From NCBI GenBank assembly GCA_030390025.1, contig CM059426.1:248001-312000 (forward strand): a stretch of 64,000 nucleotides of DNA, in the 5' to 3' direction. Under the pieces are notes generated by a model. The model saw nothing but the letters and a program-made list of their open reading frames with translations. It had not been told where the DNA came from and did not search any database. The translations under genes were made by a program, and so were the position numbers. Positions 916 to 62,670 of the stretch are shown here, piece by piece (the stretch's first letter is position 1; every line of letters begins with the position of its first letter). The DNA comes from Squalus acanthias (lineage: Eukaryota).

Positions 916-1355
916 AATATCAAAAATAGCCTCCTTCTGCGCTGTAATAGATGCTATATTCAGAGTGATTAAAAGGCAATAATCTCACTGAGTATCACGA
1001 ACCATGAACCCAGAGCAGTTTATACCTGAACACTGAGATGAGATTAAAGCCTTCACATCACTCTTGTGATGTCCATTATTTTTAAGATGTGCCATAAGGT
1101 TCACAAATAGTTTGCACTATTTTTGTCTGTAGCAGTTGTGACAATGAATACTAATGTGCATCACTGAATATTTATCGAGTGAATAGATGGTTGATTCTCA
1201 CTGATATGTACAGTCAGTATATGTTAGATTGTTTTGCTTGTGAGTCTCTGCACACATACTTTCAATTCCTGTTTAGCAGCCTGAGACCTGGGAGCAGTTC
1301 ATTCAACAGCAGCAACATACAGTTACATGGCATTGTTCCTAAAGAAAATCTAAAA

Positions 1356-3408
1356 AGGTGACTCAACCGTGGATAACAGGGGAAATTAGAGACAGCATAA
1401 AATCCAAAGATAGGGCGTATAAAATAGCCAAAAAACGCGCCAGAGCGGAAGATTGGGAACAGTTTAAGATAGAGCAAAGGAGGACAAAGGGCTTAATCAA
1501 GAGGGGCAAAATAGCTTACGAAAGCAAGCTGGCGGAAAATATAAAAACTAACTCCAAAAGCTTTTATAAGTATATCAAGAGGAAAAGACTGGTGAAAACC
1601 AAAGTTGGCCCATTGCAGTCAGATACGGGGGAATATATAACGGGAAATAAGGAAATGGCAGACCAACTAAATGCATACTTTGGGTCAGTCTTTACGAAGG
1701 AAGACACAAAAAACCTCCCTGGGATATCGGGAAAAATAGGGACATTTGCAAAGGAGGAACTGACGCAAGTCAATATCTCTAAGGATATGGTGTTAAGGAA
1801 GCTAAAGGGATTGAAGGCGGACAAATCCCCAGGGCCTGATAACATGCATCCTAGGGTGCTGAAGGAGGTGGCCCTAGAGATAGCGGATGCACTAAGTATG
1901 ATTTTTCAGAATTCATTAGACTCGGGAACAGTGCCCATGGATTGGAGGGTAGCTAACGTTACCCCACTATTCAAAAAGGGGGGTAGGCAAAAAGCAGGTA
2001 ATTACAGACCTGTAAGCCTTACATCAGTTGTGGGCAAAATGCTGGAGTCCATCATTAAGGATGAAATAGCGGAGCACTTAGCAAATGGGGACAGGATAGG
2101 ACAGAGTCAACATGGATTTACAAAGGGTAAATCGTGCTTGACTAATCTATTGGAATTTTTTGAGGGAGTAACTGGTAAAATAGATGGGGGAGAGCCAGTA
2201 GATGTGGTGTACCTGGACTTCCAAAAGGCCTTCGATAAGGTCCCACATAAAAGATTAGCAGGGAAAATTGAAGCTCATGGGATAAAGGGAAAAGTATTGA
2301 CGTGGATAGAGAACTGGCTGTCAGATAGAAAACAGAGAGTTGGAATAAACGGCTCATTTTCTGAATGGCAGGCAGTAACAAGTGGGGTACCACAGGGATC
2401 TGTCCTGGGTCCCCAGCTGTTCACAATTTACATTAATGACCTGGATCAGGGAGTCGGATGCAGCATTTCCAAATTTGCAGACGACACTAAACTAGGAGGG
2501 GGGGTGGGCTCAGAGGAGGAGACCAGGAAGCTCCAGAGCGATTTGGACAGACTGGGTGATTGGGCGGATAAATGGCAGATGCACTATAATGTGGACAAGT
2601 GCGAAGTTATCCACCTTGGGTGCAGGAACGGGAGGGCAAATTATTATTTAAATGGCAATAAATTGGGAGAGGGGGAAGTACAGAGAGACCTGGGTGTTCT
2701 TGTACACCAGTCACTGAAGGCGAGCATGCAGGTGCAACAGGCGATCAAGAAGGCAAACGGTATGCTGGCCTTCATAGCAAAAGGGTTGGAATACAGGAAC
2801 AGGGATACCTTGCTGCAGCTGTACAGGGCACTGGTGAGACCACACCTCGAGTACTGTGTACAGTTTTGGTCGCCTCATCTGAGGAAAGATGTTCTTGCCA
2901 TGGAGGGGGTGCAGCGGCGATTCACCAGGCTGATACCAGGAATGGCGGGATTGACCTATGAGGAGAGACTATGTAGTTTAGGGATGTACACACTGGAGTT
3001 TAGAAGATTGAGAGGGGACCTCATAGAAGTGTATAAAATTCTGACAGGTCTAGACAGACTAGATGCAGAAGGAATGTTTCCCTTGGCGGGTGAGAACAGA
3101 ACTAGAGGACATAATTTAAGGATAAGGGCTAAACCATTTAGGACAGAAATGAGGGGGAATTTCTTCACTCAGAGGGTGGTGAACCTGTGGAACTCATTGC
3201 CACAGAGGGCAGTGTACGCCAGCTCATTAAATATATTTAAGAGGGAATTAGATGTATTTCTACAGGCAAAAGGGGTTAAGGGTTACGGAGAGAAGGCGGG
3301 GACGGGATACTGAATTGGAGGATCAGCCATGATCTCATTAAATGGCGGAGCAGGCTCGAAGGGCCGGATGGCCTACTCCTGCTCCTATCTTCTATGTATC
3401 TATGTATG
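1356..3408 (+). mobile_element. 5'-truncated CR1-clade LINE (HER1-like), young copy
   Basis: RT ORF, 3'UTR hairpin (ggagcagg...ctcctgctcc) and (tatgtatc)n tail; probable TSD taaaa at 1351-1355 and 3409-3413. Confidence 0.95.
1358..3313 (+). CDS. CR1 ORF2 reverse transcriptase and C-terminal region; endonuclease domain lost by 5' truncation, no true ATG
   Basis: 651 open codons with motifs KSPGPD, NYRPVSLTS, QHGF, YLDFQKAFDKV, GVPQGSVLGP, KFADD, RPHLEYCVQFW, TRGH, NLWNSLP. Confidence 0.9.
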   Translation: MTQPWITGEIRDSIKSKDRAYKIAKKRARAEDWEQFKIEQRRTKGLIKRGKIAYESKLAENIKTNSKSFYKYIKRKRLVKTKVGPLQSDTGEYITGNKEMADQLNAYFGSVFTKEDTKNLPGISGKIGTFAKEELTQVNISKDMVLRKLKGLKADKSPGPDNMHPRVLKEVALEIADALSMIFQNSLDSGTVPMDWRVANVTPLFKKGGRQKAGNYRPVSLTSVVGKMLESIIKDEIAEHLANGDRIGQSQHGFTKGKSCLTNLLEFFEGVTGKIDGGEPVDVVYLDFQKAFDKVPHKRLAGKIEAHGIKGKVLTWIENWLSDRKQRVGINGSFSEWQAVTSGVPQGSVLGPQLFTIYINDLDQGVGCSISKFADDTKLGGGVGSEEETRKLQSDLDRLGDWADKWQMHYNVDKCEVIHLGCRNGRANYYLNGNKLGEGEVQRDLGVLVHQSLKASMQVQQAIKKANGMLAFIAKGLEYRNRDTLLQLYRALVRPHLEYCVQFWSPHLRKDVLAMEGVQRRFTRLIPGMAGLTYEERLCSLGMYTLEFRRLRGDLIEVYKILTGLDRLDAEGMFPLAGENRTRGHNLRIRAKPFRTEMRGNFFTQRVVNLWNSLPQRAVYASSLNIFKRELDVFLQAKGVKGYGEKAGTGY

Positions 3409-4443: not shown

Positions 4444-4642
4444 AATAACAGAAAACGCTGGAAAAACTCAGCAGGCCAGGCAGCATCCGTGGAGAGAGAA
4501 AGAGAGTTAACGTTTCAGGTCGATGACCTTTCGTCAGAACTGTGAAGAGCCGGAAATCAAATAGATTTAAGGCCAGAGTAAAGCTGGGAAAAGGGGGAGG
4601 GGATAAAAGAACAAAGGGGGAGATGAAGAGACATTAAGTGAT
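4444..4642 (-). mobile_element. Penelope-like family A pseudo-LTR fragment
   Basis: Homologous to 46240-46480; 13-bp TSD atggtaggattgg at 4431-4443 and 4643-4655. Confidence 0.85.
4505..4541 (-). ncRNA. Minimal type I hammerhead ribozyme motif
   Basis: Minus strand reads AGUU CUGACGA A AGGUC-auc-GACCU GAAA CG UU AACU: core intact, stems I and II pair, palindromic AACGUU stem III. Confidence 0.75.
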
Positions 4643-8109: not shown

Positions 8110-8285
8110 AAAAAAAACCTACAAATGCTGGAAATCTGAAACAAAAACACTGCATGCTGTAAATACACAGCGCACCTGTCAGCATCCGAACAGAGGAAAG
8201 AGATGTTAATATCTGAGGCCCTGACAACGGGATTCCACCCAAATTGTTAGCCTATCTTTTCTCTTTTCAGAAGCTGACCAATCTA
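8110..8285. mobile_element. Decayed Penelope family A inverted pseudo-LTR remnant
   Basis: atgctggaaatctgaaacaaaaac... followed by partially complementary tcttttctcttttcagaagctgacc. Confidence 0.5.
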
Positions 8286-17453: not shown

Positions 17454-17512
17454 ATAATGTTTTATACTATGACCCCTAGTGCTCCAGCCATAATTATGTC
17501 CTTTCCAAGTAA

Positions 17513-18913
17513 CCCCGCTATTCAAGAAAGGAGGGAGAGAGAAAACGGGGAACTACAGACCTGTTAGCCTCACATCAGTAGTTGGGAAAATGCTGGAATC
17601 TATTATAAAGGATGCAATAACTGGGCACTTAGAAACTAATAGTAAGATTGGATTTATGAAAGGGAAATCCTGTTTGACAAACCTACTGGAGTTCTTTGAG
17701 GATGTAACTAGTGGAGTAGACAAAGGGGAACCGGTAGATGTGGTGTATCTAGATTTTCAGAAGGCCTTCGATAAGGTCCCACACAAGAGGTTGGTGAACA
17801 ATATTAGGGCACATGAAATTGGGGGTAATATACTAGCATGGATTGAGAATTGGTTAACAGACAGAAAACAAGGAGTAGAGATAAACAGGTCTTTTTCAGG
17901 ATGGCAGGCTGTGACTAGTGGGGTACCGCAAGGATCGGTGCTTGGACCCCAGCTATTCACAATCTATATCAATGATTTGGATGAGGGGACTAAATGTAAC
18001 ATTTCCAAATTTGCTGATGATACAAAGCTAGGTGGCAGTGTCAGTTGTGAAGAGGATGTGAAGAGGCTTCAAGGGGATCTCGACAGGCTCAGTGAGTGGG
18101 CGAGAACATGGCAGATGGAATATAATGTGGATAAATTTGAAGTTATCCACTTTGGTAGAAAAAACAGAAAGGCAGAGTATTTCCTAAATAGTGAAAGATT
18201 AGGGAATGCAGATGCTCAAAGGGACCTGGGTGTCCTTGTACATGAGTCACTGAAAGTGAATGTGCTGGTATGCTGGTCTTCATTACAAGAGGATTTGAGT
18301 ACAGGAGTAAATAAGTCTTACTCCAATTATATAGGGCCCTGGTGAGACCACACCTGGAGTACTGTGTACAATTTTGGTCTCCTTACCGAAGGAAGGATAT
18401 ACATGCCATAGAGGGAGTGCAACGAAGGTTCACGAGATTGATTCCTGGGATGGCGGGACTGTCGTATGAGAAGAGATTGAGTAAACTAGGCCTGTATTCT
18501 CTTGAATTCAGAAGAATGAGAGGGGATCTCATTGAAGCATACAAAATTATTACAGGGCTTGATAGGGTGGATGCTGGGAGAACGTTTCCCTTGGCTGGGG
18601 AGTCTAGAACCAGGGGCCACAGCCTCAGGATAAAGGGTAGGCCATTCAGGACTGAGATGAGAAGAAATTTCTTCACACAGAGGGTGGTGAATCTTTGGAA
18701 TTCTCTACCCCAGAGGGCTGTGGAGGCTCAGTCATTGGGTATATTCAAAACAGAAGTCGATAGATTTCTGACTAGTAAGGGCATCAAGGGATATGGCGAT
18801 CGGGCCGGTGAATGGAGTTGAGGCAGAAGATCAGCCAGGATCTTATTGAATGGCGGAGCAGGCTCGAAGGGCCGAATGACCTATTCCTGCTCCTATTTCT
18901 TATGTTCTTATGT
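17513..18913 (+). mobile_element. 5'-truncated CR1 LINE with disrupted RT (pseudogene)
   Basis: ORFs 17590-18345 and 18342-18821 are consecutive parts of ORF2 with a deletion/frameshift near 18260; QHGF motif partly deleted; TSD aagtaa at 17507-17512 and 18914-18919. Confidence 0.92.
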
Positions 18914-19165
18914 AAGTAAGTGTAGCCCTCCGATCTTTTTACTGCCAATAGATTTTTGAGATGCTCTGGTTTACAGGTTGCAGCTTCGCACAGAGATTGT
19001 GACCTGAAAATACAAGGTGTAACTTGTGACAGATGTTATCAGCTGCTGGCTCTATAAAAATCCCTGGCATGAGGACAAGATGCGGAGATGCCGGTGTTGG
19101 ACTGGGGTGGACAAAATTGAGAGGTCGCACAACACCAGGTTATAGTCCAACAGTTTTATTTGAAA

Positions 19166-19197
19166 TCACAAGCTTTCGGAGCTCCTTCCTCAGGTGA
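19166..19197 (-). ncRNA. Hammerhead motif with stem II loop deleted
   Basis: UCAC CUGAGGA A GGAG-CUCC GAAA GC UU GUGA. Confidence 0.55.
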
Positions 19198-19527
19198 AGT
19201 AAATTAGATACAGAATCGCCAAAGCATATATAGATAGAGAACAAAGCATGTGTACCTTACAATTGCAGACCACTAAATTAAATCATCCTGACTATCTGCC
19301 GAGGTGTGATAAAGTTAATCAAGTCAGCCAGGAAGGTACCACATCAAAGACATAGCAAGATACAACTGAGACAATAAGGTGTAGTCGCAGGGGTTCTAAC
19401 GTGTCAAAAGCTGCCGTCTGTATGTAAAACGAAAAGCTTTAAAATTTTTACTTTTTTACTGGGAAAATTTTTACTTTTTTACTGGGAATCACATCTGTGA
19501 ACAAGCCAACGACGACTCGAGTCCGGA

Positions 19528-19799
19528 TCACGTCATGTATCGTGACATAAACCCAAGATCCCGGTTGAGACCGTCTTCATGAGTGCGGAACTTGGCTATC
19601 AGTTTCTGCTCGATGATTTTGCGTTGTCGTGTGTTTCTAAGGTTGCCTTGGAGAACGCTTACCCGCAGATCCGAGGCTGAATGTCCTTGACTGCTGAAGT
19701 GTTCCCCGACTGGGAGGTAACAATCCTGCCTGGCGATTGTTGCGCGGTGCTCGTTCATACGTTGTCTCAGTGTCTGCATGGTCTCGCCAATGTACCATG
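19528..19799 (-). pseudogene. GIY-YIG endonuclease fragment of a Penelope-like element
   Basis: YIGET, R-x-x-EH, conserved E and terminal GLN motifs. Confidence 0.85.
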
Positions 19800-20609: not shown

Positions 20610-21297
20610 GTCAGCTGTGGCTCAGTGGGTAGCACACTTGCCTTTGAGTCAGAAGGTTGTGGGTTCAAGTCCCACTCCAGGACTTTGAGCACATAAAGCT
20701 AGGCTGACACTCCAGTGCAGTACCGAGGGAGTACTGCACTGTCAGTGGTGCTGTCTTTTGGATGAGACGTTAAACCGAGGCCCCGTCTGCTCTCTCAGGT
20801 GGATGTAAAAGATCCCATGGCACTATTTCGAAGAAGAGCAGGGGAGTTCTCCCCCGGTGTCCTGGCTAATATTTATCCCTCAGTCAACATAACAAAAAAC
20901 AGGTTATCTGGTCATTATCACATTGCTGTATGTGGGAGCTTGCTGTGCACAAATTGGCTGCCGTGCTTCCCACATTACAACAGTGACTGCACTCCAAAAA
21001 GTACTTCTACAAAAAGAAAATACTGCAGATGCTGGAAATCTGAAATAAAAACAGAAAATGCTGGAGATACTCAGCAGGTCAGGCAGCATCTGTGAAGAGA
21101 GAAAAACAGAGTTAAAGTTTCAGGTCGATGATCTGAAACGTTAACTCTGTTTCTCTCTTCACAGATGTTGCCTGACCTGCTGAGTATCTCCAGCATTTTC
21201 TGTTTTTATTCCAAAAAGTACTTCATTGGCTGTAAAACGCTTTGAGACGTCCGGTGGTCGTGAAAGGCACTGTATAAATGTAAGGCTTTCTTTCTTT
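20610..21297 (+). mobile_element. Full-length Deu-SINE interrupted by a Penelope hairpin
   Basis: A and B boxes, Deu core; the SINE resumes at 21210 after a duplicated site. Confidence 0.9.
21008..21209. mobile_element. Penelope family A inverted (palindromic) pseudo-LTR insertion
   Basis: Long inverted arms; 15-bp TSD tccaaaaagtacttc at 20993-21007 and 21210-21224. Confidence 0.9.
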
Positions 21298-28160: not shown

Positions 28161-28897
28161 AGATTCTTTCAACTCTGTAAAACAAACGGCCCCATAATTG
28201 GGGTTCACGTCCATCTCAAATCACTAGAGCTGGAATTCTGATCTTCCAAATGGCCACCAGTGACTACTTAATGACTTGCTCATAAATTTTCATAATTTGT
28301 CACGTGGGGGATCCTTCAGCGAGTTGACAGTTTCTTCCTAATAATCACTGCAAGGCAGTGAGTGTCCTTGAAACACACACTGAAGAATGTAGATTTCTTC
28401 CTGCTGTGGCAGGATGCCATCCCAACAGGAGCACTCATACCTAAACAGCTGGATTGGCTGCAGAGGTTTGAACCTAAAAAGTAACACACTGTAGTGGCAG
28501 CAGAAGAAATTAGCCTGAATAACAAAATGGAAAGTGTCATTAGTAAACCATCTCCATTAGTGGTTTGACTTGTGGCATTTTCCTTATGGTACCACCTTCT
28601 TACATCAAGGAACTTCTTTCTTAGAATTTGCAGGAAGGAATGCTGGATAGAAAGTAGGAAAGAACTTGCAGTGCATTACAGGGTCTCAGGACGTCCCAAA
28701 GTGCTCTATGCCAATGAAGTACTTTTGAACTGTAACCACTGTTGTAATGTAGGGAAATGCAGCAGTCAATTTGCACGCAGCAAGGTCCCACAAACAACAA
28801 TGAGATAATGACCAGATAATCTGTTTTAGTAATGTTGGTTGAGGGATAGATATTGGCTAAAATACTGGGAGAACGCCCCTGCTCTTCTTCAAATAGT

Positions 28898-29090
28898 CAT
28901 GATGCGGAGATGCCGGTGTTGGACTGTATTGGACATAAGTGAGAAGTCGCACAACACCAGGTTATAGTCCAACTGCTTTATTTGAAATCACAAGCTTTCA
29001 GTTCACCTGACGAAGGAGCAGCGCTCCGAAAGCTTGTGATTTCAAATAAAGCTGTTGGACTATAACCTGGTGTTGTGCGACTTCTCACTT
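28898..29090. mobile_element. Penelope family B inverted pseudo-LTR insertion
   Basis: Arms aagtgagaagtc...cacaagctttc and gaaagcttgtg...gacttctcactt; 13-bp TSD ttcttcaaatagt at 28885-28897 and 29091-29103. Confidence 0.9.
29003..29039 (+). ncRNA. Minimal type I hammerhead ribozyme motif
   Basis: UCAC CUGACGA A GGAGC-agc-GCUCC GAAA GC UU GUGA; palindromic AAGCUU stem III. Confidence 0.78.
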
Positions 29091-30514
29091 TTCTTCAAAT
29101 AGTGGCATGGGATCCTGTACGCCCACCTGAGAGGGCAGACAGGACCTCCGTTTAACGTCCCATCCGAAAGACGGCACCTCCGACAGTGCAGCACTCCCTC
29201 AGTACTGCATTAAAGTGTCAGCCTGGATTATGTGCTCAAGTCTCCAGAGTGAAGTTTGAATCTATGATCTTCTAACTCAGAGGCAAGTATGCAACCACTG
29301 AGCCAAGGCTGACACTTCACCAGTGCAGGAAAACTAGCTGAATTTTCCTGTCCCTAATCCAGGGGTGCTGAGGCAAATTGTATCACTGCTACCATTGCTC
29401 ACTAAGTGTGATCATCCTCTAGCCAAACCTCACGGAATGGCAGCAACACGTATGGTGGCTGGACTGGGGTGTAATGTGGATATTTTGATTTGGTGTTTTC
29501 TATTGTTTAGATCAAACCGTTGAATGAATGAGTAGATAGGCTCTGGAACAAAGATTTCCAAGTTGGCTTTTCTTATCTGCAATTTATAGAAACCGTAATC
29601 TGAGGGCAGGACACCTTGGCAAAGTAATGTTTACAATTCAACCATTGCCTTTTCTCTGATTTCACAAATGATCTCAAGTGATAAATATTCCTTTTCAGAA
29701 TTATAATTTAAAAAGATTATTTGAAATGGATAGGGCTGAATTTACTTCTGCAAACACCAAGGGCTGTAAGCTGTAATCAAATACTCCACTGGCCAATTAA
29801 AAAAAAATGCGAAAGATAATTGGTACTCTATTTTTTCAGAGGGTTAAAATAACACCAACATTTTGCACACATTGAACAGAAACCTTTTATCCATCTCATT
29901 CAGGTCTGAGCTTACCGCACATCAAAGCTATAAGCAGAACAGCTGAAACACACAACTAAAGGAAATCTGAGCAAGCAGCTCCCCTGACACAAAGAGACGA
30001 GTGATATCATTCAACCTCGTCGCAAAGCGATTTTATTTAAAATTCCAGCCCATTACTGCGCTGTTAATTTTGAGAAGGACTTCGATAAGAGATCCGAGAC
30101 ACTTTACCAGTCCCATCTCGAATAGTAACTAAAACCCGTCTCCATTTATTCCACTCATTGTTTCATTTGTAGATTAAGTTCTGAAGTTCTTGTAAGGACT
30201 TTCTATCTCGTTAAAACACAGCATCGATGTCATAGTAACTTTCTACATTTAGGTTACCTGATAGGGGACCAATACTTCCTGCTCTACCTTCTCCCTCTCT
30301 TTCCCCTTAAATCAAGTCTTATAATGTAGTTCCATCAGGTGAAATGGAACAAAGGGTCTTTGTCCGATGTCTTGATGCTTGTCCTCCTATCGATCAGAAA
30401 TGGCATTGATTACTGCAGGGTCTCAGTCTGATAGCTAAAAGCATGTCTTCTGACTATGTGCTTCCTTTATATACAATGCCGGCTCTTATTGCGGAATAAT
30501 GCTATCGGTTCCAA

Positions 30515-33604: not shown

Positions 33605-34058
33605 TAAGAAAAACTTGCATTTATATAGCACCTTTCACAACCACCGCACATCTCAAAGCACTTTACAGCCAATGAAGTAGAGTCACTGTTGTAATGTGGG
33701 AAACGCGGCAGCCAATTTGCGCACAGCAAGGTCCCACAAACAGCAATGTGATAATGACCAAATAATCTGTTTTTGTTATGTTGGTTGAGGGATAAATATT
33801 GGCTAGGACACCGGGATTAACTCCGCTGCTCTTCTTCGAAATAGTGCCACGAGATCTTTTACATCCACCTGAGAGGGCAGACGGGGCCTCGGTTTAACAT
33901 CTCATCTGAAAGACGTCACCTCTGACAGTGCAGCACTCCCTCAATACTGCACTGGAGTGTCAGCCTAGCTTTATGTGCTTAAGTCCCTGACGTGGGACTT
34001 GAACCCACAACCTTTGGACTCAGAGGTGAGTGTGCTACCCACTGAGCCACAGCTGATA
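33605..34058 (-). mobile_element. Full-length Deu-SINE
   Basis: Collinear reverse complement of 16060-16530. Confidence 0.9.
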
Positions 34059-41462: not shown

Positions 41463-42637
41463 CAATGTATATCTGGAGCTGGCATTGCGCTCCACCAGAG
41501 TAATGTTACCTATCTGGTGGGTCTTGCTGGCACTGGTTCAGTTGGACTGCTTTCATATTTGGCACTGTTACGCCATGGATTTGGCAGAGAACTTGCGCTA
41601 TAACCAGCGTGAATTTGCTGCCCAGTTCTTAGTATAACAACAGCATTTGGTAACACAGGATAAGTGACCTGCAGACATTGCTGTAAAATTTCCTTTAGCA
41701 CCAATGAATGTGGTTGGTGGTGTTTGTTATACAACATTTCAAACTCTTCTTATCACAGCAATTGATATTAAAAGGTGAGAAAGAAAAGCAGATTCCACTA
41801 CGAAAAATAGTTTTCTTTATCCATAAGAAGGTAGATATTACAGTAGGGTAGTACAGTAGTGTTATCATGTGATTGCTTAAAGTACTCAGATCAAATTCCT
41901 CTCCACAATTTTAAACAGGCATTAACCAGTTTTAAAATAAACAGATTAAAGTTTCTGTTTAAATAGCAACATGGAAAAGTTCAGAAAGAGACTGGAGTTC
42001 ATCTAACAGGTCCCAACCGCTCACTCCCTCCAAAATCTATCCCTTAGATTTTTCCCCACTTCCCCTACTTGGACAGTCCATTCACACATTTACCGTGCTC
42101 TACATAAACGAGTTAAATCTAAAGGCGTTAAATCTCCATGGAGCTCTCCTGATCGTGTGCAGTAACTTCAGAAAATCCAAGAAAACCCTGGAGAAACGAC
42201 TTCAACCAAAGAGACTGTATCCCTTCCTGTTTCTCAGCTCACGCCTGATTCTAGAGTTTGTGGCAATCTCCAACACATTACTAAAGAACCATAAAGGTTT
42301 ACAGAAGGAGGCTGTCAATCAAAAACTCATTCCACTGCCCCAATCTCCTTCCATAGCTCTGTATTTTCCTCTACTTCAAATATTTATTAATTATTCCCTT
42401 AAAAGATGCATTGGGCTCTGCCTCAACTGCGCCCTGTGACAAAGCATGCTATGCTCCAATGACCCTCAAAGTTATTACCTGATTTCAATTTATCTAGTCG
42501 CTAAAGAATCGTGAATATTCATTTTCTATTTTAGCTCTCCTAACTATTTTCATAACCTCCTGTACCTTGTTTTTACATTTATTTCTGTCCACTAACTTTA
42601 TACATTTGGAACAATCACTGTTTGCCCAAGTTCCTTG

Positions 42638-42850
42638 TGCTGCTTCCATCATTGCCCACATCAGTCTCTTCCCGCGGGTGCCGAATCCTCATGCTGCTTC
42701 CATCATTGCCCACATCAGTCTCTTCCCGCGGGTGCCGAATCCTCATGCTGCTTCCATCATTGCCCACATCAGTCTCTTTCCGCGGGTGCCGAATCCTCAT
42801 GCTGCTTCCATCATTGCCCACATCAGTCTCTTCCCGCGGGTGCCAAACCC
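42638..42850. repeat. 54-bp tandem repeat, ~3.9 near-identical units
   Basis: Unit tgctgcttccatcattgcccacatcagtctcttcccgcgggtgccgaatcctca starts at 42638, 42692, 42746 and 42800. Confidence 0.95.
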
Positions 42851-42997
42851 TTCAAGCTCTCTCTGTAAGGTCTACATCTCACTCTTTCATACGTCATTGA
42901 GCCACAACTTCTGGATGACTTCCCTCCCTTTTTCAGAAATGTTTCCACTGCTCCATTACATCCGCTACCCTGGCACCTGGGAAGCAACACACCATTC

Positions 42998-45834: not shown

Positions 45835-46516
45835 GGTCTCCTCTACACTGGGGAGAGCAAACACAGATTGGGTGATTGCTTTGCTGAACATCTCCATTCA
45901 GTCCCCAAGCATAACTCTGAGCTTCAGGTCGCTTGCCATTTTAATTCTCTGTCCCATTCCCACTCCCATTCCCACTCCAGCCTCTCTGTCCTTGGCCTCG
46001 TACACTGTTCTAATGAAGCTCAACGGAAGCTCAAGGAACAGCACCTCAAACTTCGATTAGGCACTTTACAACCTTCCTGACTCAACATTGAGTTCTGCAG
46101 TTTCAGATCACAGCCACTGCTCTCATTTCTTCAGACAGCAGGTGCTGGTAATGATTCTATTGTTGTCATTTGCACCTCCGCTAGACCCGTCTTTTATTTC
46201 TTTACTTGTCCCAGCACCACCCCCTTTTGCCTTGCACCATCATCCCTTTTGTCATTTAATCTCTCCTACCTTCCACCCTATCACAGACCTTCCCTTTTGT
46301 TCTTTCCTCCCCTCTCCCCCCTCCTTTCCCTGTCTCTGCACTTGCTTAAAAACCGTCACGTCTCTAACTTTTTCCAGTTCTGACGAAAGGTCAACGAGCT
46401 GAAACGTTAACTCTGTTTCTCTCTCTCCACAAACGCCGCCTGACCTGCTGAGTATTTCCAGCATTTTCTGTTTTTATTTCAGATTTCCAGCATCCGCAGT
46501 ATTTTGCTTTTGTATT
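45835..46516 (+). mobile_element. Penelope-like family A, 5'-truncated (GIY-YIG fragment plus pseudo-LTR)
   Basis: LLYTGESKHRLGDCFAEH...VACHFN...RKLKEQHL...LQP; pseudo-LTR with hammerhead motif and 3' extension. Confidence 0.88.
46376..46412 (+). ncRNA. Minimal hammerhead motif with one stem II mismatch
   Basis: AGUU CUGACGA A AGGUC-aac-GAGCU GAAA CG UU AACU. Confidence 0.65.
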
Positions 46517-46777: not shown

Positions 46778-47062
46778 TACAAAAACAAAATACTGCGGAT
46801 GCTGGAAATCTGAAATAAAAGCAGAAAATGCTGGAAATACTCAGCAGGTCAGGCAGCGTCTGTGGAGAGAGAGAAACAGAGTTAACGTTTCAGCTCGATG
46901 ACCTTATGTCAGAACTGGAAGAAGTTAGAGACGTGACAGTTTTTAAGCAAGTGCGGAGACAGGGAAAGGGGTGGGGGAGAGGGGAGGAAAGAACAAAAGG
47001 GCAGGTCTGTGATAGGATGGAAGGCAGGAGTGATTAAATGACAAAAGGGATGATGGCGTGAG
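46778..47062 (-). mobile_element. Penelope family A pseudo-LTR fragment with mutated hammerhead core (CUGACAU)
   Basis: Reverse complement of 46235-46514. Confidence 0.88.
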
Positions 47063-47394
47063 GCACCTCTGATTGGTGAGCTGATACAAAGATGGAAACA
47101 AAGCTCTGATTGAAGCTCAATCCTAAAACAGAAACAAAAGATCCTCTTTTTCTTGTTATTTTCTGTTTCAATTAGAATCTGAGAACAATATTTTCCAACA
47201 GAGGAAGTTTGCCAGTGAAAACGAAGAGGCTGAGTGCAGGCTTACTCCTAATGTAAAGAGGGAGGGCTGAAACCAGCTGTTTTGACAGCCACCTCTATAT
47301 GTCTTTTCCTCCTCCAGTGATGGAGGATCACAATTATTGACTATTTGCTCGAAAAGGTGGATTATAAGAATCGTACTCCTGCATGGAATTGCAC

Positions 47395-55394: not shown

Positions 55395-55522
55395 NNNNNN
55401 NNNNNNNNNNNNNNNNNNNNNNNNNNNNNNNNNNNNNNNNNNNNNNNNNNNNNNNNNNNNNNNNNNNNNNNNNNNNNNNNNNNNNNNNNNNNNNNNNNNN
55501 NNNNNNNNNNNNNNNNNNNNNN
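55395..55522. other. Assembly gap (128 N)
   Basis: Run of n. Confidence 1.
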
Positions 55523-59337: not shown

Positions 59338-59490
59338 TAACTTCCTCCAGCCCTACACAACCCCGCCCAAACTTACCGGTCCTCTAAACCTTGTGCATCC
59401 TTCGCTCCGCCATTGGTGGTCATGCCTCCAGTCCCCCAGGCCCCATGCTCGGGAATTCTCTCTCTAAACCCTTCTGCCTCCCCTTCTTAA

Positions 59491-59568
59491 GTGAGAAGTC
59501 GCACAACACCAGGTTATAGTCCAACAGCTTTATTTGAAATCACAAGCTTTCGGAGCGCTGCTCCTTCG
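59491..59568 (-). mobile_element. 78-bp Penelope family B pseudo-LTR fragment
   Basis: Matches the reverse complement of 29011-29088; 11-bp TSD ccccttcttaa at 59480-59490 and 59569-59579. Confidence 0.9.
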
Positions 59569-61659: not shown

Positions 61660-62670
61660 GAGACCAATTATCTCAGCCCCAGGACATTGCTACGTGAGTT
61701 CCTCAGGGTAGTGTCTGAGGCCCAACCATCTTTAGCTGCTTCATTTCCTACCTTCCCTCCATCATGTCAGAAGTGGGGATGTTCGCTGATGATTGCACAA
61801 TGTTCAGTTCCATTTGCAATTCCTCAGATAATGAAGTAGTCCGTGCCAATGTGCAGCAAGACCTGGACAACATTCTGGCTCGGGCTGATAAGTGGCAAGT
61901 AACATTCATGCCACACAAGTGCCAGGCAATGACCATTTCCAACAAGAGAGAGTCTAACTACCTCTCCTTGACATTCAATGGCATTACCATCATTAAATCC
62001 CCTACCATCAACATCTTGGGGGTCACCATTGACCAGAAGCTTAATTGGACCAGCCATATAAATACTGTGGGCTACAAAAACAGGTCAGAGGCTGGGTATT
62101 CTGCGGCAAGTGTCTCATCTCCTGACTCCCAAAGCATTTCTGCCACTTACAAGGAACAAGTAAGGAGTGTGATGGAATACTCTCCACTTGCCTGGATGAG
62201 TGCAGCTCCAACAACACTCAAGAAGCTCAACACCATCCAGATCAAAGCATCCCGCTTGATCGGCACCCCATTCACCACCTTAAACAATCACTTCCTCCAT
62301 CACTGGCTGCAGTGTGTACCATCTACAAGATGCACTGCAGCAACTCGCCAAAGCTTCTTCGACAGCATCTCCCAAACCCGCGACCTCTACCATCTAGAAG
62401 GACAAGAACAGCAGGCGCATGGGAACACCACCACCTCCAAGTTCCCCTCCAAGTCACACACCATCCTGACTTGGAAATATATCGCCGATCCTTCATCGTC
62501 GCTGGGTCAAAATCCTGGAACTCCCTCCCTAACAGCACTGTGGGAGTACCTTCGCCACACGGACTGCAGGGGTTCAAGAAGGCGGCTCACCACCACCTTC
62601 TCGAGGGCAACTAGGGATGGGAAATACCAGCGATGCCCACATCCCGTGAATGAGTATTTTTTTTAAAAAA
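61660..62670 (+). mobile_element. LINE family 2, ~1-kb 3' fragment containing the RT FADD motif
   Basis: MFADDCTMF...QQDLDNI...WQVTF...KCQAM...MEYSPLAW; frameshifted. Confidence 0.9.

Follow-up and report, generated by a model that had tools for sequence, protein, structure and literature searches.

A short insert in the genome of Squalus acanthias raises the question of how a retroelement comes to lie in the DNA as two copies facing opposite ways, and whether the ribozyme found at the turn has any part in this. The insert (B1) occupies 193 bp of the 64,000-nucleotide stretch analysed here, which is called the window. It is an ordinary leftover of a known kind, a Penelope-like retroelement (PLE) laid down as a back-to-back double copy. 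It touches an open question, namely how PLEs make their inverted copies and what their hammerheads do. In our judgement, with a probability of about 0.6, B1 is an insertion of an EN+ PLE made by priming at a staggered cut, with each of its two DNA ends serving as a primer and the cDNAs being end-joined afterwards.

Structure of the insert

A hairpin insert with a 13-bp TSD had been claimed in the preliminary description of the locus, and this held up. The flanking repeats are identical, 13 being the sole matching length when lengths of 5 to 24 were compared; the two arms (28938-28999 and 29028-29089) agree as reverse complements at 61 of 62 positions; and the stability of the fold (z = -17.6) was equalled by none of 200 shuffled sequences. 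B1 is located inside a SINE copy. In paralogous SINEs of the window (for example, the overlapping 33726-33845 and 33832-34056), the stretch that forms the repeats is present once, and thus the repeats arose with the insertion. The window holds a second fold-back, of another family (family A). Both (20995-21225 for family A and 28885-29103 for family B, to which B1 belongs) are inserted in copies of one SINE family, each at a position of its own.

The left arm carries a further 40 nt, which have no partner in the right arm. This one-arm extension, on which the earlier description was silent, is the diagnostic tail of PLEs. The right arm is 100% identical to a sister copy, B3, over 80 nt, and family B is, therefore, young.

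Other identities were also considered. As a microRNA precursor, the insert reached only generic hairpin scores (MIR5062, 54 bits with a gathering value of 140; MIR396, 32 with a gathering value of 80). A non-LTR retrozyme was rejected, since B1 has a single motif in a head-to-head layout and not head-to-tail tandem units with complete hammerheads.

Table 1. Coordinates of B1, its parts and the copies compared with it (positions within the window; a point marks a feature given without strand)
Feature	Position	Strand	Remarks
Left TSD, 13 bp, within SINE copy	28885..28897	.	Equals 29091-29103
PLE tail, 40 nt, inverted arm only	28898..28937	-	Unpartnered; matches the end of sister copy B2
Left (inverted) arm, 62 nt	28938..28999	-	Reverse complement of 29028-29089; mismatch at 28974; may reach 29001
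Two junction bases, uncertain origin	29000..29001	.	Filler, decayed left arm or variant right arm; family copies in 4 runs diverge before 29002
Right (sense) arm, 5'-truncated PLE 3' end	29002..29090	+	Ends at the inner, tail-less end; identical to B3 over 80 nt
Minimal type I hammerhead	29003..29039	+	Predicted cut after U29035; cleavage predicted only
Right TSD, 13 bp	29091..29103	.	Identical to left TSD
Sister copy B2, single non-inverted 721-bp insertion	19079..19799	-	10-bp TSD 19069-19078/19800-19809
Sister copy B3, single, non-inverted, tail-less	59490..59568	-	10-11-bp TSD; 5' end in catalytic core (equivalent to 29011)
Family A fold-back (comparison)	21008..21212	.	Tail on left arm; junction at 3' strand of stem II

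Family B and its sister copies

The identity of the family comes from the sister copy B2, which extends about 600 nt beyond the ribozyme. Its hammerhead is damaged, its tail is mostly preserved, and it includes the GIY-YIG end of an ORF (about 19531-19799). The frame at 19531-19799 matches Pfam GIY-YIG weakly (E-value 0.0027), falling short of the curated cut-off. Over 89 aa, it shares 72% identity with residues 792-880 of a protein of 881 aa, in which RVT_1 occupies 370-559. Among 132 candidates, 36 relatives of this frame were found, and the named ones are from sharks. As the frame matches both GIY-YIG and the C-terminus of a reverse transcriptase (RT) protein, family B is, judged from its sequence, an EN+ PLE of a shark-type genome, its endonuclease being C-terminal. 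The Penelope identity given earlier is supported. Two patterns and one protein query gave no match to family B in viral, metagenome or prokaryote contigs.

The copies share fixed ends. The inner end is the same in B1 and B3, and B1 and B2 share the outer end to within 3 nt. Family A, too, has these two ends. The tail, complete at 40 nt on the left arm of B1 and mostly present in B2, is absent from the right arm of B1 and from B3.

The layout is a familiar one. An inverted, 5'-truncated copy together with a 30-40-bp tail at one end is described as standard for PLE insertions (PMC8557442; PMC3846280). According to the same two sources, EN+ PLEs of the Penelope/Poseidon type share with B1 the inverted 5'-truncated copy at the 5' end, the tail at one end, the short TSD, palindromes at the junction, a hammerhead in the terminal repeat and the C-terminal GIY-YIG. 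B1 differs in being shark-type and in keeping only the last 90-100 nt, with no ORF; its TSD is 13 bp, as against 8-10 bp in the rotifer examples of these papers.

The family B GIY-YIG end is also contained in many annotated shark gene isoforms (P0004, P0013, P0014, P0020, P0029 and others), which are probably exonised repeats or annotation artefacts. Elsewhere, the window contains LINE-type reverse transcriptase remnants at 1343-3313, 17494-18345 and 61719-62666, all on the plus strand, the first being a 656-aa open frame. There is also a tandem array with a 54-nt period at 42578-42901, and a run of 128 N at 55395-55522.

The hammerhead motif

The ribozyme at the turn had been called complete and intact. 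Its core and stems I and II are indeed present, but helix III would form only in a dimer, and no Rfam hammerhead model matched at an E-value of 1 in the window or of 10 over 56 nt. Stem I (29003-06/29036-39) has 4 bp and is followed by the core (29007-13) and an unpaired base at 29014; stem II (29015-19/29023-27) has 5 bp closed by G-C, and is followed by GAAA at 29028-31 and a palindromic AGCU at 29031-34. Within 29000-29045, both stems pair with a probability of 0.87-0.99. Of helix III there is just a single A-U pair, which closes a palindromic loop of 2 nt. Dimer cleavage by related hammerhead motifs is reportedly the claim in the title of a 2017 paper. A strict motif scan returned two matches in the window and none in 60 simulated windows.

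The base at the cut site varies. In contigs of one organism (organism A), position 29035 is C in 23-26% of the summed depth (83 and 77 contigs), this being the sole variant listed. A C at the cut site is permitted by the NUH rule. In two other organisms, the base is almost only U, which marks a lineage-specific subfamily.

The motif has the CUGANGA and GAAA core, helices I and II, an unpaired base, the G10.1-C11.1 pair, a palindromic 15.2-16.2 and an NUH site. This agrees with the minimal hammerheads (min-HHR) of Cervera & De la Pena (2014; PMC4209133), which also have a 4-bp helix I, an unpaired base 5' of helix II, the G10.1-C11.1 pair and the palindromic 15.2-16.2. They likewise lack helix III in the monomer and occur mostly as solitary genomic motifs; opposite-strand pairs of them have been described as well. 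Helix II is shorter in B1 (5 bp, as against 7-8 bp in the Schistosoma examples of that paper), and its cut-site base is U. A canonical, monomer-active hammerhead was ruled out by the lack of a stable helix III and of an Rfam match, and the motif of B1 is predicted to be inactive as a monomer. A solo min-HHR showed no cleavage in that study, and dimers showed little (PMC4209133).

Where the junction lies

The left arm had been said to stop exactly at the complement of GAAA. The join does fall in the motif, but its exact place is uncertain by 2-5 nt, owing to the two ambiguous bases between the arms. They may be filler. Alternatively, the left arm may run on to the complement of 29026, at the cost of one CpG transition at 29000, or the right arm may begin as many as 5 nt before this point, in which case the arms overlap by 3 nt and one substitution is needed; the last reading relies on a consensus of loose ends of family copies that agree at 0.44-0.66. 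The join thus placed has the core edge on one side and the stem I edge on the other. It has a microhomology of only 0-3 nt and is not at stem II.

The comparison with family A, as drawn earlier, stands. The two families share no match longer than 8 nt, and the junction of the family A fold-back also lies in its ribozyme. This fold-back reads antisense through loop II, continues through a shared 3' strand of stem II (5 nt, one mismatch) and then goes on in sense. In it, the arm that bears the loop is the one that bears the tail; in B1, the loop-bearing arm is tail-less.

Arm ends and junctions in the window and in sequencing runs

To place these junctions in a wider frame, arm ends were counted for nine arms of seven inserts in the window (four arms of family B and five of family A); a family A copy at about 8113-8209 was excluded as its end is too decayed to place. 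None of the nine ends at the cut site, five stop within the motif or at its edge, and the other four continue for 100-600 nt beyond it. The motif or its edge is where both arms of each fold-back in the window stop. For the apparent surplus of ends there (three of seven inserts), P is 0.32 to 0.008 with a median arm of 60 to 400 nt. This surplus is a small-sample hint that depends on the null chosen for arm length, a lead and not a result. Inverted repeats are only modestly more frequent in the motif than upstream of it (3 as against 1.85 per 37 nt), although three of the four inverted repeats of at least 5 nt in 29002-29090 lie in it. An overlap of at least 5 nt is expected by chance with P = 0.008 per junction.

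Junctions were further surveyed in contigs from 4 of 21 runs that mapped to 29000-29090, a 91-nt reference that reveals short arms only; the sample of junctions so obtained is tiny and biased. One contig (record 23 of run X5) passes from minus 29023-29089 to plus 29020-29087, which, from the coordinates, is an exact 5-nt overlap at stem II. It is a single Logan contig, and such contigs can be chimeric. Compared with the reference, one of its arms shows 0 differences in 68 positions and the other shows 8 in 67; two different RNA templates, or a chimera, could be the cause. Besides it, the opposite-strand joints listed are 29004-29048 (two runs) and 29004-29050 (one run), in which the arms overlap by 0-2 nt and one of them lies outside the motif. 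Five joints were listed in one set and 12 of 13 in the other, one of these 12 going to 29036. The junction of B1 itself was absent among the joints listed from the four runs. No pile of arm ends was seen in these runs, and no loose end at 29028 or 29036 was present among the 24 of 259 listed; the contigs that run on before 29002 number at least 50, 44, 58 and 302.

Some patterns were set aside. Arm ends recurring at 29002-29004 in opposite-strand joints coincide with the start of the usable reference at 29002, and those joints that two organisms share there are possibly one inherited event. The smooth fall in depth across the motif was not used, as depth is no copy number.

Two further observations concern family A. 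A single copy at 4444-4640 on the minus strand has a TSD of about 13 bp and ends at the inner, tail-less site; its minimal hammerhead is intact and not blocked. Two other ends, at 46228-46514 (plus) and 46778-47065 (minus), face each other tail to tail across 263 nt. Both are tailed, are 93% alike and extend about 150 nt past the ribozyme, with no TSD within the ranges searched.

Origin of the back-to-back copy

In LINE-1 twin priming, both ends of a staggered cut prime cDNA, and an inversion is left between TSDs. B1 would share with it the priming by both ends, the inversion between TSDs and the microhomology at the join. The difference is that LINE-1 inverts another, upstream part of one RNA, whereas in B1 the same terminal region would be copied twice, from two start sites. 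Under our preferred reading, two nicks 13 nt apart would leave two 3' ends. A cDNA begun at the outer start site would account for the left arm with its tail (about 102 nt), and one begun at the inner start site for the tail-less right arm (about 89 nt); both would stop early and be joined head to head. What is directly seen is the TSD, the two arms, the tail on one arm and the link of the family to an RT/GIY-YIG ORF. The priming itself is inferred by analogy with the enzyme of another species, and its intermediates are hypothetical.

That enzyme belongs to PAc, the Poseidon element of Anolis carolinensis, an element whose tail lies between two RT start sites and whose enzyme has been shown in vitro to cut both strands and to extend them (Frangieh et al. 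2024; PMC11167929). As far as the accessible text of that study goes, PAc and B1 both have two fixed 3' ends that bound the tail, an AC-rich tail region, a hammerhead upstream of the start sites and the possibility of priming on both strands. They differ in that the inversion junctions of PAc are not analysed there, and in the 40-nt tail of B1.

The main rival is self-priming, in which a single cDNA, or else an antisense RNA template, pairs with itself at a short palindrome or a ribozyme stem and copies itself, the endonuclease later clipping the tail from one arm. It has been proposed from the palindromes at inverted PLE junctions (PMC3846280). The family A fold-back suits it, with a tailed arm that carries the loop and a join at stem II, and so do the arms of B1, which are near-identical and have subfamily letters in common. 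In B1, however, the loop-bearing arm is tail-less, and a cDNA from the inner start has no tail; by the logic of the sequence, folding back on itself cannot generate one, and the tail would have to come from another template or be lost by later clipping. The join of B1 also offers at most 3 nt of pairing, and the unequal arms of the single contig with the exact stem II overlap would be odd for a self-copy. Priming from both ends is favoured because the joining of two cDNAs allows the tail to be on the loop arm, as in family A, or on the other arm, as in B1; the stem II microhomologies of the family A fold-back and of that contig lend it further support. Self-priming is, on balance, an unlikely origin for B1.

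What places the join in the ribozyme is a separate matter. The inversion had been thought to be coupled to the ribozyme, and, as far as cleavage is concerned, the evidence goes against this. The junction of B1 does lie close upstream of the predicted cut (8-10 nt for the left arm and about 34 nt for the right), the listed variants have nothing but U or C at the cut site, as an active motif would allow, and one joint goes to 29036. Yet a cut template would end at 29036, and both arms of B1 copy through the cut site, where none of the window arms and none of the listed loose ends stop. In the anole element, moreover, catalytic mutants of the hammerhead left activity, insertion products and product size unchanged, and no RNA ends were found at its cut site (PMC11167929). 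That self-cleavage sets the inversion point is very improbable, and for the junction of B1 this is largely refuted.

A weaker, structural coupling to the motif is possible, since five of nine arms end in it and stem II microhomology marks the joins of two other fold-backs. Antisense cDNAs would pair with each other only at self-complementary stretches, and the hammerhead helices would be the first of these that short cDNAs meet; joins may, for this reason, be biased to the motif without any catalysis. It can be proposed, tentatively and at clearly less than even odds, that hammerhead helices, above all stem II, seed PLE fold-back junctions in two unrelated families. Somewhat better placed, though still short of even, is chance. 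The motif lies 52-88 nt from the inner start, a range in which many PLE cDNAs stop in any case, and a chance join fits either priming model. Arms that run well past the motif, the contigs that continue before 29002 and the lack of an end pile all agree with this, as does a P of 0.16-0.32 for three of seven inserts when the median arm is 60-100 nt. Opposite-strand hammerhead motifs in metazoan PLEs are described as lying 100-700 bp apart, and such junctions are thus outside the motif (PMC4209133). Chance explains less easily why both arms of both window fold-backs end in or at the motif, and why two of the junctions examined have a 5-nt overlap at stem II.

In the accessible text of the two papers on PLE layout, the junction palindromes are not linked to hammerhead helices, unlike in the present proposal (PMC8557442; PMC3846280). 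A literature search found no paper tying PLE inversion junctions to hammerhead stems, although subscription papers and figure supplements may hold such data.

Blocking of the ribozyme by the left arm

The long hairpin had been expected to pair with the strand from GAAA to stem I and to prevent the hammerhead fold. This agrees with computation in silico, where the cost of the hammerhead fold rises from 1.3-6.3 kcal/mol without the left arm to 20.3 kcal/mol with it, and the pairing of stem I drops to 0. The further step, that the hairpin silences an otherwise harmful ribozyme and so makes fold-backs tolerable in introns, found no such footing and is very unlikely. Tandem retrozymes are somewhat under-represented in Xenopus introns, which would suit it; about 42-44% of Xenopus retrozyme copies are nevertheless intronic, according to the same source (10.64898/2026.07.22.740005). 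Against it stand the inactivity of solo minimal motifs noted above and the anole motif, which needed its protein (PMC11167929), as well as unblocked motifs in the same window, at 4504-4537 on the minus strand and 46380 on the plus strand. No host gene or exon was found in 259 stop-free frames (250 non-repeat frames of at least 55 aa and 9 long ORFs), none having a host domain above the Pfam cut-off, a search that short exons escape. Selection for blocking is, therefore, unsupported; the motif of B1 is predicted to be a passenger and the blocking a side effect.

Significance

Taken alone, B1 has little significance: it is short, follows a layout already on record and comes from a genome in which such PLE insertions abound. 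Very short and very young fold-backs in an abundant family would, however, be good material, and the arms on which the tail and the loop fall could separate twin priming from self-priming. If the seeding of junctions by hammerhead helices is true, the palindromes at PLE junctions would often be ribozyme stems. Should joins prove to cluster at these stems rather than at the cut site, base-pairing alone, with no catalysis, would let the motif influence the layout of insertions.
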